From NCBI GenBank assembly GCA_964415125.1, contig CAYQAD010000042.1:1-12803 (forward strand): a DNA stretch of 12,803 bases, given 5' to 3'. The DNA is from an uncultured Phycisphaeraceae bacterium (lineage in GTDB: Bacteria; Planctomycetota; Phycisphaerae; Phycisphaerales; UBA1924). The translations under genes and the position numbers were made by a program. Numbering within the stretch: the first letter of the stretch is position 1; the number at the start of each line of letters is the position of its first letter. This document shows positions 10,671-12,803 of the stretch, piece after piece. The notes beneath the pieces are model-generated. The model saw only the letters and a list, made by a program, of their open reading frames with translations, ran no database searches and had not been told where the DNA came from.

Positions 10671-11028
10671 CACGTGGGCTCCTTTCGTTGGGCTCGTGAT
10701 GCGTGCGAGTGGGGGAGTTGCTTCGAATGCGAGCCAAGGGGTTCCTTGCGCTGCCCGCCCGTTTCTGCGGCGGGGTCCGGGTTGAGGCCCGACGCACGCC
10801 GCTCGTGCGCTCGCGGCGTGTCGCCCCATCGGCTCGCCGGTGGCGGGCGTCTTGGGGGAGGTGCCGCGAGCGTGTCGCGTCGATTGCCGGGCCGGTATCC
10901 GCCGGACCACGGGCCGCGTCGCCGGTGCTTCCCTCCGCCGGAGCGCCGCGGGGCGGCGTGCCGACAGCCGGGTCGCGGCGGGCATGCGGTTCGGTGGGCC
11001 CTTGGCCCACGGTGTGCTTTGGCCAGTC

Positions 11029-11097
11029 TGCTCTGGGCGGGATTCGAACCCGCAGGTCTTGCGACCCTGACCGTCCGTCATCTGGTTCAGAGATGCG
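11029..11097 (-). ncRNA. tRNA-like element B: T-arm plus acceptor 3' strand fragment with an upstream GNRA hairpin, directly abutting element A
   Basis: The minus strand reads ...CATCT-CTGAACC-AGATG...CAGGGTC-GCAA-GACCTG-GCGGG-TTCGAAT-CCCGC-CCAGAGC-A. It has a perfect T-arm and acceptor 3' half. No matching acceptor 5' strand or D-arm is present, so it is not a complete tRNA. Confidence 0.35.
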
Positions 11098-11169
11098 GGT
11101 TGCGTGCCGGACTCGAACCGGCAACAGCCGAGGGGTAACTCGGTGCTCTACCAATTGAGCAAACGCTTC
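11098..11169 (-). ncRNA. tRNA-like element A: near-complete cloverleaf with non-canonical features (candidate Y-RNA-like tRNA mimic or tRNA pseudogene)
   Basis: The minus strand reads GAAGCGT-TT-GCTC-AATTGGTA-GAGC-A-CCGAG-TTACCC-CTCGG-CTGTT-GCCGG-TTCGAGT-CCGGC-ACGCAAC-C. It has canonical D-arm and T-arm (TTCGA loop). The anticodon loop is only 6 nt, and the acceptor stem has two A-A mismatches with no encoded CCA. Confidence 0.5.
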
Positions 11170-11376
11170 ATGTCCGCCGGCAGAACCCGTGTTCGCGAAA
11201 CGCGGGACGCCGAGAGGCGCCGCGTCGCCGGACGGCGGGGCATGACAAAGGGGTGGGTGATGTTGAACTCGCCGCAGCACGGGCCCTGGTCGAATCGCGA
11301 GGCGGCCCGCAGTGCGTGGACCTCGCTGGGGCGGAGGCGGCGGCGTGTGTTGTGGATCGATCGGGCTTCCATGGTC

Positions 11377-11404
11377 GGCCTCCTGTCGTGAATGACGGGA
11401 GGCC
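11377..11404. other. Stable hairpin ggcctcctg-tcgtgaatga-cgggaggcc (9-bp stem including one G-U)
   Basis: Seen directly in the rtcR-operon intergenic region. No U-tract follows on either strand. Confidence 0.3.
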
Positions 11405-11520
11405 CTTATGCACGACGCGTGCCAGCCTCGTCGGCCGGAGACGCCAGAACAAAAAACACCGTTTGGAGGCTGTGAACGCGGATGGCGATCGTTGCAGGTG
11501 CAGCGTCGCGTTTGGAATGT

Positions 11521-11565: not shown

Positions 11566-12803
11566 TTGGCAGCTCGCAAGTCCATCCCGCGTCCGACGGT
11601 GGTGCTCGGCATCCTCGGGACCACGCTCGACACCGGGAAGGGCCCCAAGCGGTGGGAGCGCTGGCGGCCGACCGTGTCGCTCTGCCAGCACGAAGATCTC
11701 CTTGTCGATCGCCTCGAGCTGTTGCACGATCAGCGGGCGTCGCGCCTCGCGGAGACGATCATCGCGGACATCGCGTCGGTCTCGCCCGAGACGCGGGTCG
11801 TCCAGCACCTCGTGGACATCACCGACCCGTGGGACTTCGAGGAGGTCTACGGCTCGCTGCACGAGTTCGCGGCGGGTTACGACTTCGACACCGAGCGCGA
11901 GGACTACCTCGTCCACATCACCACGGGCACGCACGTCGCGCAGATCTGCAACTTCCTCCTCACCGAGGCCCGCTACTTCCCCGCGCGGCTGATCCAGACC
12001 AGCCCGCCCCGCGGCAACAAGGGGCGAAGCACCGACAGCCCCGGGCTGTTCAGCATCATCGACCTCGACCTTTCGCGGTACGACCGCCTCGCGGCACGAT
12101 TCGAGCGCGAGCACACCGACGCGATCGCCTCGCTCAAGGGGGGCATCGAGACGAGAAACCCGTCGTTCAACCGGCTCATCGAACGCATCGAGCACGTCGC
12201 GGCACGGACGACCGATCCGATCCTGATCACGGGGCCCACGGGTGCCGGCAAGTCACGCCTGGCGGGGCGGATCTTCGAGCTCCGCAAGCATCGCCGGCTG
12301 GTGCGGGGCGAGCTCGTCGAGGTGAACTGCGCGACCCTTCGCGGCGATGGCGCGATGTCGGCGCTCTTCGGGCACAAGAAGGGCGCGTTCACCGGCGCGG
12401 CCTCCGACCGCGCGGGACTGTTGCGGTCCGCCGATGGCGGCACGCTGTTCCTCGATGAGATCGGCGAGCTCGGGCTCGACGAGCAGGCAATGCTGCTCCG
12501 GGCGATCGAGGAGAAACGGTTCCTCTCGCTCGGTGCCGACACGGAGACATCGAGCGATTTCCAGCTCATCGCGGGGACCAACCGCGATCTTGCGGAGCGC
12601 GTACGCAGCGGCGAGTTCCGGGAGGACCTGCTCGCGCGGATCAACCTTTGGACCTTCGAGATGCCCGCGCTGCGTGATCGCCCGGAAGACATCGAGCCGA
12701 ACCTTGACTACGAGCTGGAGCGATACGCGCGGGACCGCGGGCAGTTCGTGCGGTTCAGCGCCGAGGCGAGGTCGGCGTTTCTGGCGTTCGCGACCGGGCC
12801 CGA
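11566..12803 (+). CDS. rtcR: Sigma54-dependent transcriptional regulator RtcR (N-terminal CARF-type sensor domain plus AAA+ sigma54-activation domain); 3' end beyond the window
   Basis: The translation aligns along its length with E. coli RtcR: ...WERWRPTVSLCQHEDLLVDRLELLHD...SPET...DPWDFEEVYG...YLVHITTGTHVAQIC...ARLIQTSPP...IDLDLSRY..., then Walker A ITGPTGAGKS, GAFTGA, LFLDEIGEL, and the ESR-like GEFREDLLARINLW. The start is inferred at TTG 11566, with a possible GTG at 11599. The frame is open to the window end, so it is absent from the ORF track. Confidence 0.85.
   Translation, partial: MAARKSIPRPTVVLGILGTTLDTGKGPKRWERWRPTVSLCQHEDLLVDRLELLHDQRASRLAETIIADIASVSPETRVVQHLVDITDPWDFEEVYGSLHEFAAGYDFDTEREDYLVHITTGTHVAQICNFLLTEARYFPARLIQTSPPRGNKGRSTDSPGLFSIIDLDLSRYDRLAARFEREHTDAIASLKGGIETRNPSFNRLIERIEHVAARTTDPILITGPTGAGKSRLAGRIFELRKHRRLVRGELVEVNCATLRGDGAMSALFGHKKGAFTGAASDRAGLLRSADGGTLFLDEIGELGLDEQAMLLRAIEEKRFLSLGADTETSSDFQLIAGTNRDLAERVRSGEFREDLLARINLWTFEMPALRDRPEDIEPNLDYELERYARDRGQFVRFSAEARSAFLAFATGP

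Follow-up and report, generated by a model that had tools for sequence, protein, structure and literature searches.

Organization of the locus

The 12,803-nt stretch of DNA analysed here (hereafter, the window) is positions 1 to 12,803 of contig CAYQAD010000042.1 in assembly GCA_964415125.1, from an uncultured Phycisphaeraceae bacterium of the Planctomycetota. On its minus strand it encodes an SPFH/Band-7 protein of the slipin type, RtcB, an AAA ATPase and RtcA, and divergently from these genes it carries the 5′ part of rtcR. Between a predicted sigma-54-type promoter and the SPFH gene, the operon strand has a non-coding stretch of about 750 nt, in which two tRNA-like modules, called elements A and B, lie one after the other. 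Element A is very likely a tRNA mimic of the type named b7a-tRNA, for band 7-associated, set inside a conserved structured leader, and A and B together are probably domains of one conserved structured RNA of about 500 nt that makes up the 5′ part of the SPFH/RtcB/AAA/RtcA transcript. The features of the locus are as follows, in window coordinates.

11098-11169, minus strand: element A, a tRNA-like cloverleaf, very likely of the b7a type (ARAGORN, Rfam tRNA model and family alignment)
11181-11231, minus strand: 5′ stem of the leader, conserved with covariation in 52 loci: CCG-G-CGA-CGC...GCG-UU-UCG...CGG, then the GGGUUCUG motif
11079-11095, minus strand: lineage-specific hairpin of 5 bp between A and B, CAUCU-CUGAACC-AGAUG (window, L161 and L162 only)
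11054-11067, minus strand: hairpin 1 of B, GGGUC-GCAA-GACCU, with a GNRA loop, preceded by a GGUCA (GGYA-type) motif at 11072-11068
11037-11053, minus strand: T arm of B, GCGGG-UUCGAAU-CCCGC, perfectly paired (T loop UUCRANU in 17 of 17 B modules)
11020-11036, minus strand: hairpin 3, a probable part of B, CCAG-AGCAGA-CUGG (11036-11023), followed by CCA (equivalents in relatives)
10729-11010, minus strand: 3′ leader domain of about 280 nt, multi-helix, with a GGAUACC loop, closed by a 13-bp helix (11010-10998 with 10741-10729)
10686-10678, minus strand: ribosome-binding site GAAAGGAGC of the SPFH gene
10670-9543, minus strand: SPFH/Band-7 (slipin) gene (Pfam Band_7, 1.4e-30)
9363-7867, minus strand: RtcB (Pfam RtcB, 5.6e-102)
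7561-6299, minus strand: AAA ATPase with a BCS1-like N-terminus (Pfam AAA, 3e-22)
6308-5283, minus strand: RtcA (Pfam RTC, 6.9e-81; NCBIfam RNA 3′-terminal phosphate cyclase)
11409-11424, minus strand: predicted sigma-54-type promoter TGGCACgcgtcGTGCA, read from the sequence
11168-11372, minus strand: putative upstream open reading frame (ORF) of 74 codons with an AGGAGG ribosome-binding site, crossing the 5′ leader stem and ending with a TAG stop within the D loop of A
11566-12803, plus strand: rtcR, 5′ part, with a TTG start at 11566, divergent from the operon and continuing beyond the window

Element A is a tRNA-like cloverleaf

Element A folds as a complete cloverleaf with a D arm (GCTC-AATTGGTA-GAGC), a T arm (GCCGG-TTCGAGT-CCGGC) and an anticodon stem (CCGAG/CTCGG) closing a 6-nt loop, TTACCC. 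The acceptor strands GAAGCGT and ACGCAAC contain two A-A mismatches, the discriminator is C, and CCA is absent. The Rfam tRNA model aligns to A over all of its positions 1-71. The score is 39.1 bits against a gathering score of 29, with E=2e-5 when the whole window is searched; in this alignment, two acceptor pairs, 2 and 3, are non-canonical and the loop is one nucleotide short. Nucleotides that hold the L-shape of tRNA are all kept in A: U8, A14, G18G19, the A15:U48 pair and the T loop UUCGAGU. ARAGORN returns the element as "tRNA-???" with a 2-nt "anticodon", which corresponds to the 6-nt loop.

An earlier first-pass annotation of this DNA, made from its letters alone, had described A as a cloverleaf with both arms, a 6-nt loop, two A-A mismatches and no CCA, and had expected tRNAscan-SE or ARAGORN to give A a low-score or pseudo call and B none; the sequence, ARAGORN and Rfam bear out this description. 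Its view that A is unlikely to decode stands as well, because the 6-nt loop and the two mismatches in the acceptor stem depart from what is canonical for decoding tRNAs. A appears to be a non-decoding tRNA mimic in the leader of an RtcB operon under RtcR/sigma-54 control. At gathering thresholds, tRNA is the sole Rfam family returned for the window and 11 related loci, and none is returned there for the 5′ stem, B or the 3′ domain. The folding energy of the single sequence from 11200 to 11020 is not unusual (z=-1.1) and, because folding energy alone is unremarkable, the case rests on comparative data.

Conservation of element A upstream of SPFH genes

Related loci (numbered with L) were collected through an alignment of SPFH homologues, 80 of them from genomes with one genome per species and 80 from metagenomes, and the two closest relatives, L161 (90% protein identity) and L162 (81%), were added. 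In more than 75 loci of Planctomycetota and Acidobacteriota, the orthologous SPFH/slipin gene has an A-type element 300-650 nt upstream of it; in the window, the two share a strand and the gene begins 428 nt downstream of A. Nearly all loci with sufficient upstream sequence have an ARAGORN tRNA call about 430-550 nt upstream of the SPFH start and on the same strand, the "identity" of which varies by locus and is "???" in several. More than 100 loci keep the element at a fixed position with respect to the SPFH start codon.

In an alignment of 62 A elements, the D arm (UAGCUCA..GG.UAGAGCA) and the T arm are nearly invariant. Pairing reaches 98-100% in the D, anticodon and T helices. Of the 21 pairs, 16 show compensatory changes, and covariation scores 0.54 compared with 0.06-0.12 when the 3′ partners are slid. 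Conservation of the acceptor stem is confined to the inner 3-4 pairs, about 65% of the members lack pairing at the outer three, and a CCA is encoded 3′ of the discriminator in 9 of the 62. The first-pass annotation had held that a normal 7-nt-loop call for A, or loss of the tRNA-like fold in related loci, would speak against it. Since the fold is conserved in related loci, with covariation in all four helices that is strong in the D, anticodon and T helices, these objections fall away.

The loop of the anticodon arm behaves differently from its scaffold. Among 76 A elements, it has 7 nt in 66, 6 nt in seven (including the window and L161), 8 nt in two and 5 nt in one. Of the 7-nt loops, only 74% have U33. 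The "anticodons" take at least 26 values, including the A34 triplets AUG, AAG and AAU. For example, members of the Planctomycetia clade have an identical anticodon stem, CCAGA/UCUGG, with the loops CUUGGGA, CUGAGGA, AAAGAA, CCAUGAC, CGGCAAA, CUGAUAA and others. Members of the window's clade likewise share one stem, which carries the loop CUGAUAA in L162 and L074 and 6-nt loops in the window (UUACCC) and in L161 (ACAUAC). The anticodon loop of A is free of decoding constraint: the orthologous scaffold is constant and the loop sequence is free-running.

A covariance model built from the 62-sequence alignment (R1) finds about 50 further elements with 55-88 bits, at the matching position, in loci outside the training set. 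Five loci (L030, L019, L005, L090 and L110) have at A's place a hairpin and a T arm, or a degenerate D arm only. Since these few loci carry such forms instead, the full cloverleaf may be dispensable in some lineages.

The larger structured leader RNA

Conserved structure continues on both sides of the tRNA-like part. The 5′ stem has the consensus CCR-G-CGG-CGC...[variable hairpin]...GYGYG-UU-CCG-N5-7-YGG followed by GUUCUG, which is found in 52 of 52 aligned loci, and 11 of its 13 predicted pairs show compensatory changes among them. For example, CCG:CGG in 28 loci corresponds to CCA:UGG in 21, and the window has a compensated CGA:UCG variant. A pairing of the invariant GUUCUG motif with hairpin 3 or with the 3′ domain was considered; it can be drawn in the window (GUUCUG:CAGAGC), is not conserved in L074 or others, and was rejected.

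The 3′ domain has 69 predicted pairs in an alignment of ten sequences, 39 of which show compensatory changes, and 90.8% of the alignment cells are paired as compared with 36-44% when the 3′ partners are slid. It ends about 45 nt before the ribosome-binding site of the SPFH gene. Loci of the Planctomycetia type have an equivalent 3′ domain, in which 37 of 67 pairs show compensatory changes. GGAUACC and CUCAA..C..CCCG occur as motifs in both domains, and 79 of 136 loci have a GGAUACC-like motif at about -220 to -270. A hidden ORF in the spacer between B and the SPFH gene was rejected, as tblastn of the three frames gave no consistent protein conservation.

Element B

A second T arm is located 42-70 nt 3′ of the T arm of A in 17 Phycisphaerae-type loci. 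Their B elements share one layout: a GGYA motif, a hairpin of 4-6 bp (hairpin 1) that 0-3 nt of linker separate from a T arm whose loop reads UUCRANU, and a further hairpin. Hairpin 1 has a GNRA loop in 10 of the 17 loci and ten different stem sequences, with compensatory changes in 5 of 6 pairs; a stem of at least 4 bp is present at its place in 17 of 17 real sequences and in 23% of shuffled flanks. The alignment of B was padded by hand and fitted to the stems, in place of a plain MAFFT alignment that was structurally wrong, so its 100% pairing arises by construction and the compensatory changes alone count.

An equivalent of hairpin 3 adjoins the T arm in 17 of 17 loci as parsed by eye, automated detection of it performs no better than on shuffled controls, and hairpin 3 is a probable part of B. 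In eleven relatives, among them L004, L006, L007, L008, L038, L082 and L085, hairpin 3 is followed by (A/U)CCA. In the seven named here, the loop of hairpin 3 has the consensus YCGGAUA/UCGGUCAU and can pair with a CCG of the linker; in 8 of the 11, the loop can pair with the C-rich linker after the T arm (P ~0.001 versus shuffles). B of the window has no linker and no potential for this pseudoknot, which is confined to ACCA-type relatives.

The CUGAACC hairpin between A and B shows a compensatory change from U-A to C-G among the window, L161 and L162. Its loop varies in both sequence and length and is therefore not anticodon-like. In other loci, A leads directly into the GGYA motif without this hairpin. 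For B, the first-pass annotation had listed a T arm, a GNRA hairpin and the 5-bp CUGAACC hairpin, all of which are present, and an acceptor 3′ strand, CCAGAGC, which is instead the 5′ half of a hairpin; because CCAGAGC belongs to CCAG-AGCAGA-CTGG (11036-11023), the end of the tRNA-like region that it had placed at 11029 cuts through hairpin 3. B is a hairpin/T-arm/hairpin accessory module of the Phycisphaerae branch and not the remnant of a second cloverleaf.

In the aligned sequences of L002 and L003, the place that the upstream ORF has in the window's clade is taken by a third module, about 160 nt upstream of the T loop of A: a long hairpin with a canonical T arm after it. A T-loop motif, as a motif only, is found at this position in L081, L085 and L086. 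Some leaders may thus carry up to three T arms.

The SPFH protein and its genomic linkage

SPFH proteins form large rings or cages. The homologues of the window protein carry the name "slipin family protein" and point to Phycisphaerales, within the Planctomycetota, as the source of the DNA; no transmembrane segment is predicted in the window protein, and its C-terminal two-thirds match stomatin, which has been solved as 16-mer rings. An AlphaFold model of the protein (375 aa; pLDDT, 83.6) starts with three beta repeats at the N-terminus, which lead into an SPFH domain and a long helix; each beta repeat resembles the first strands of an SPFH domain. In Foldseek, the full-length model aligns with the major vault protein (MVP) with a query-normalised TM-score of 0.44-0.48 and an rmsd of 14-16 Å; further matches are stomatin, HflK/C and prohibitin.

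RtcR, RtcB and RtcA are found beside the SPFH gene only in the closest relatives of the window, namely L002, L003, L074, L161, L162 and, in rearranged form, L001. L032 has RtcR alone with SPFH. While the first-pass annotation had looked for the association of the modules in RtcR and RtcB, the element follows the SPFH/Band-7 gene.

Another linkage is with tRNA genes. At least 19 of the 80 genome loci have the leader-SPFH unit at the end of, or inside, a same-strand array of 7-36 tRNA genes. These include L007, L008, L009, L038, L054, L057, L062, L064, L069, L075 and L078, as judged from the 6 kb upstream of SPFH. The arrays end just before the leader and sometimes resume 3′ of the SPFH gene, and that of L008 covers all 20 amino acids. 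In Planctomycetia, tRNA-Cys(GCA) is almost always located 50-100 nt before the 5′ leader stem. A divergent RtcB-like ORF with about 25% identity to the window RtcB lies within the arrays of L008 (-2429..-1308) and L038 (-2545..-1427, both relative to the SPFH start). Planctomycetes are known to have long tRNA arrays (L-arrays), and those of cyanobacteria have been connected with rtcB and with translational stress (PMC8421152); SPFH/Band-7 genes go unmentioned in that paper (PMC8421152). The TrcR regulon of Anabaena includes a slipin gene along with the tRNA array and rtcB (PMC10272220).

Comparison with known RNAs

The b7a-tRNA is reportedly a computational prediction of Burroughs and Aravind from 2016. 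In the literature searched, one later paper mentions it, a 2018 preprint on the structure of YrlA (10.1101/312249). In certain bacteria, RtcB adjoins the gene of a Band-7-domain protein and a predicted noncoding RNA (10.1101/312249), and the b7a-tRNA has been proposed as the SPFH counterpart of the Ro/Y-RNA pair (10.1101/312249). Compared with the class as portrayed in that preprint, A likewise resembles an authentic tRNA and is adjacent to, and co-oriented with, a Band-7/SPFH gene. The association with RtcB is seen in the window, L002, L003, L074, L161 and L162 and is absent from most other loci. To the features given in that preprint, the window adds the 6-nt loop, the lineage-specific hairpin and the second T-arm module B, and also the 5′ stem, the 3′ domain of about 280 nt and, in this clade, the RtcR/sigma-54 promoter.

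The element is a new instance of the predicted b7a-tRNA class, so that the first-pass annotation was right in spirit in connecting tRNA mimicry with RNA repair and wrong in choosing the Y-RNA family. As judged against the portrayal of b7a-tRNA in that one preprint, module B, the large 5′ and 3′ structures, the link to tRNA arrays and the vault-protein-like partner appear to be undescribed. The b7a-tRNA is a ten-year-old computational prediction without an Rfam family, and the window offers a clean instance of it under a recognisable RtcR/sigma-54 promoter. The comparative data go beyond a tRNA-like gene beside a Band-7 gene, as they include a variable loop on an invariant scaffold, B, the large RNA, the MVP-like partner and the tRNA arrays.

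In Salmonella, YrlA is located in RtcR-controlled operons together with rtcBA. Bacterial Y RNAs such as YrlA (RF02553) and Deinococcus Yrn1 (RF01053) also mimic tRNAs with T-arm and D-arm features, and Yrn1 has, like B, a GNRA-type hairpin directly before its T arm. However, the anticodon arm of YrlA is replaced by a Ro-binding stem whereas A retains an anticodon arm of its own, and the gene of the protein partner is that of Ro for Y RNAs and that of SPFH here. A Y-RNA or YrlA-like identity, which the first-pass annotation had put forward, finds no backing: the YrlA model RF02553 (gathering score, 69) has no match at E<=10 in window positions 10850-11500, the Ro-binding motif GNCGAAN0-1G is absent from the 760-nt leader, no terminal stem enclosing A and B is found, and no rsr gene is present among the scanned ORFs. 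In relatives, RF02553 scores 24-27 bits only, at junctions of adjacent true tRNAs. Yrn1 matches hairpin 1 and the T arm of B with a non-significant 16.5 bits (E=3.9), and 14.4 bits in L006. The absence of a Ro60 gene, noted in the first-pass annotation, holds among the 10 large window ORFs scanned, in which neither a TROVE/Ro60 domain nor an integrase is found; no TROVE gene is annotated in L161 or L162.

The tymovirus tRNA-like structure (RF00233) has a pseudoknotted-acceptor layout that is echoed by B of L006, L007 and L082, in which the T arm is followed by a C-rich linker, a loop-pairing hairpin and ACCA. RF00233 gives 22.4 bits in L006, below its gathering score of 40, and has no match in the window. 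The viral structure is at the 3′ end of the viral RNA, whereas the element here is internal to a bacterial transcript.

MVP forms a cage associated with small structured RNAs, and the vault comprises MVP, vault RNA and the TROVE-domain protein TEP1. The MVP domain order (beta repeats, SPFH "shoulder" and long helix) recurs in the SPFH partner protein. The latter is much smaller than MVP (375 aa, with three repeats) and the similarity is at the level of fold only; the leader RNA has no sequence relationship to vault RNA. As for L-arrays (PMC8421152), many related loci have same-strand tRNA arrays whereas the window has none, and A is not a decoding member of an array.

Promoter and upstream ORF

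As translated, rtcR opens with an N-terminus of the RtcR type and continues into the AAA+ domain of a sigma-54 activator, and its orthologues in L161 and L162 have the Pfam domains RtcR and Sigma54_activat. The promoter element, TGGCA(C/T)-N5-nTGCA / TCGCA, aligns at the matching position in L161, L162, L074 and L001; in all loci searched, almost no canonical sigma-54 promoter is found beyond the RtcR-linked clade.

The upstream ORF is open in five loci, with 70-78 codons and an identical ATG and Shine-Dalgarno sequence, and is an annotated gene in L162. Its stop codon in L161, L162, L074 and L001 is the TAG of the conserved UAGCUC that opens the D stem of A. A codon-position test counts 79/71/91 substitutions at positions 1/2/3 and gives no sign of selection on a peptide; because this codon-position bias is absent, the coding status of the ORF is uncertain. 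If it is translated, the leader stem and the acceptor of A would be unfolded. A hairpin GGCCUCC...GGAGGCC, which came to light through a chance Rfam match on the opposite strand, is located at 11407-11377 (minus strand), just 3′ of the predicted sigma-54 transcription start, and would sequester the Shine-Dalgarno sequence of the upstream ORF.

Possible function and alternatives

What the RNA might do can be outlined as follows. RtcR is activated by tRNA fragments with 2′,3′-cyclic phosphate ends (PMC7790460). In the proposed mechanism, damaged tRNAs would activate RtcR, and the leader and operon would be transcribed from the RtcR/sigma-54 promoter. The tRNA-like RNA, still attached to the leader or perhaps freed from it by tRNA-processing enzymes, would bind the SPFH oligomer that this transcript also encodes. 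Together they would make a ribonucleoprotein comparable to Ro/Y RNA or to vault protein/vault RNA, which might then present, select, hold or protect tRNA-shaped substrates for healing and sealing by RtcA and RtcB. We infer transcription as one unit, processing, protein binding and the repair role from genes, alignments and structure models. We therefore hold tentatively, as the most likely role, that A and B act in trans in tRNA repair, as the RNA that partners a soluble SPFH oligomer resembling vault protein. A wider generalization is more speculative: the leaders could represent an undescribed class of RNAs of about 500-600 nt, with a 5′ stem, one to three T-arm modules and a domain of about 280 nt, always placed before a soluble MVP-like SPFH gene, and RNA and protein could form a vault- or Ro-like ribonucleoprotein that monitors or repairs damaged tRNAs and is wired, depending on the lineage, to tRNA arrays or to RtcR/RtcB/RtcA.

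Several points weigh against this assignment and role. The b7a-tRNA itself had no experimental validation as of 2018 (10.1101/312249), and its definition is taken here from that preprint, not from the sequences of Burroughs and Aravind (2016). The model R1 gives some array tRNAs 65-69 bits as compared with 71 for A of the window; since such poor separation means overlap with ordinary tRNAs, family membership rests on position and structure and not on score. In L074 and L162, A comes close to an ordinary tRNA-Ile(GAU); that of L074 reaches 63.8 bits with this identity and has A73 and an encoded CCA. Most loci consist of leader and SPFH gene with unrelated neighbours, without RtcB or RtcR within 6 kb. 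Because the Rtc genes are mostly absent, the core unit is RNA plus SPFH, to which Rtc genes are a lineage-specific addition, and the RNA's core function cannot be one that is specific to RtcB repair. Furthermore, the tRNA-like part is embedded in a long leader and its 3′ end is not obvious, so that a cis-acting role fits as well as a released small RNA.

Such a cis-acting leader is the main rival, and we regard it as possible but rather doubtful. Here, the whole structure of about 500 nt would stay on the mRNA and govern its processing, stability or translation; it might do so by recruiting RNase P or tRNA-binding factors, or the upstream ORF with its end in A might let it sense translation or tRNA status. 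The unbroken structure up to about 45 nt from the SPFH ribosome-binding site, the fixed distance to the start codon and the strong covariation of the 3′ domain, typical of riboregulators, speak for it, and no terminator-like site is found on the operon strand. The upstream ORF, with its conserved Shine-Dalgarno sequence and ATG, also overlaps the 5′ stem and the 5′ strand of A in the five loci. But the ORF lacks codon-position bias and is replaced by a hairpin and T arm in L002, L003 and L081, no alternative on/off pairing with the ribosome-binding site is found, and a full set of tRNA tertiary nucleotides exceeds the need of a simple processing signal. Moreover, regulation in cis is compatible with a ribonucleoprotein and does not exclude it. 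It is unlikely that A serves as a decoy or bait for anticodon nucleases, a module that would absorb tRNA-cleaving toxins or be cut by them, with the cyclic-phosphate fragments feeding back on the CARF domain of RtcR. A hypervariable anticodon loop on a constant scaffold is what an arms race might leave, and related loci are in or after long tRNA arrays, which have been proposed as sponges for toxin RNases (PMC8421152); neutral drift explains the loop variation equally well, however, and the 10 of 76 loops that have 5, 6 or 8 nt would not imitate a real anticodon loop well. RtcR is absent from most loci, and the decoy leaves the 5′ stem and the large 3′ domain unexplained.

The remaining explanations, of which the decayed tRNA pair and the integration remnant had been named as alternatives in the first-pass annotation, take the modules for something other than a conserved leader RNA. 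That a genuine decoding tRNA, or a recently decayed pair of tRNA genes, came by chance to lie in the rtcR-SPFH spacer is very improbable. Real tRNA genes do occur in the operons of L161, L162 and L074, of which the window has only a remnant (9425-9399), and the tRNA-Ile(GAU)-like A of L074 would suit this explanation. Against it are the short loop and mismatches of A in the window, the changing "anticodon" (including A34 triplets) on a constant scaffold, the truncated acceptor of most members and the conserved RNA structure flanking the modules on both sides. A decayed pair is further contradicted by the conserved hairpins that B has of its own and by the different T stems, GCGGG in B and GCCGG in A. 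Hardly any more credible is a remnant left by an integrase at a tRNA gene, with an attL/attR-type duplication of the 3′ half, or membership in the YrlA/Y-RNA family. A duplicated T arm beside a tRNA-like gene can resemble an att site, and B has its weak match to Yrn1; yet the scanned ORFs include neither Ro/TROVE nor integrase, RF02553 and the GNCGAAN0-1G motif have no match as described above, and B is conserved with covariation in 17 loci of different genomes. Conservation and covariation in more than 75 loci speak strongly against both decay and integration.

At the least, annotation of these loci should name non-decoding tRNA-like elements instead of tRNA genes or pseudogenes. If RNA and SPFH protein do form a particle, it would be a third paradigm of an RNA-repair ribonucleoprotein alongside Ro/Y RNA and vaults, and would provide a handle on how bacteria recognize tRNA-shaped substrates after damage by toxins or phages.

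Other features of the operon

The gene of the AAA ATPase is an insertion between RtcB and RtcA in the window. No tblastn match to it is found in L074, L002 or L003; L161 also has an AAA gene immediately 3′ of RtcB. PADLOC finds no match for SPFH, RtcB or RtcA among the operon proteins and only weak IetA/TRIP13-like matches for the AAA ATPase.

The spacer between SPFH and RtcB contains the decayed tRNA remnant, AAGCCGCGGATTCAGAAACCGCCGGGG, at 9425-9399 (minus strand), with a mutated T arm and an acceptor strand. In L161, L162 and L074, intact genes of tRNA-Met(CAU) and/or tRNA-Arg(ACG) are found between SPFH and RtcB. Thus, genuine tRNA genes decay within the operon whereas A and B persist.

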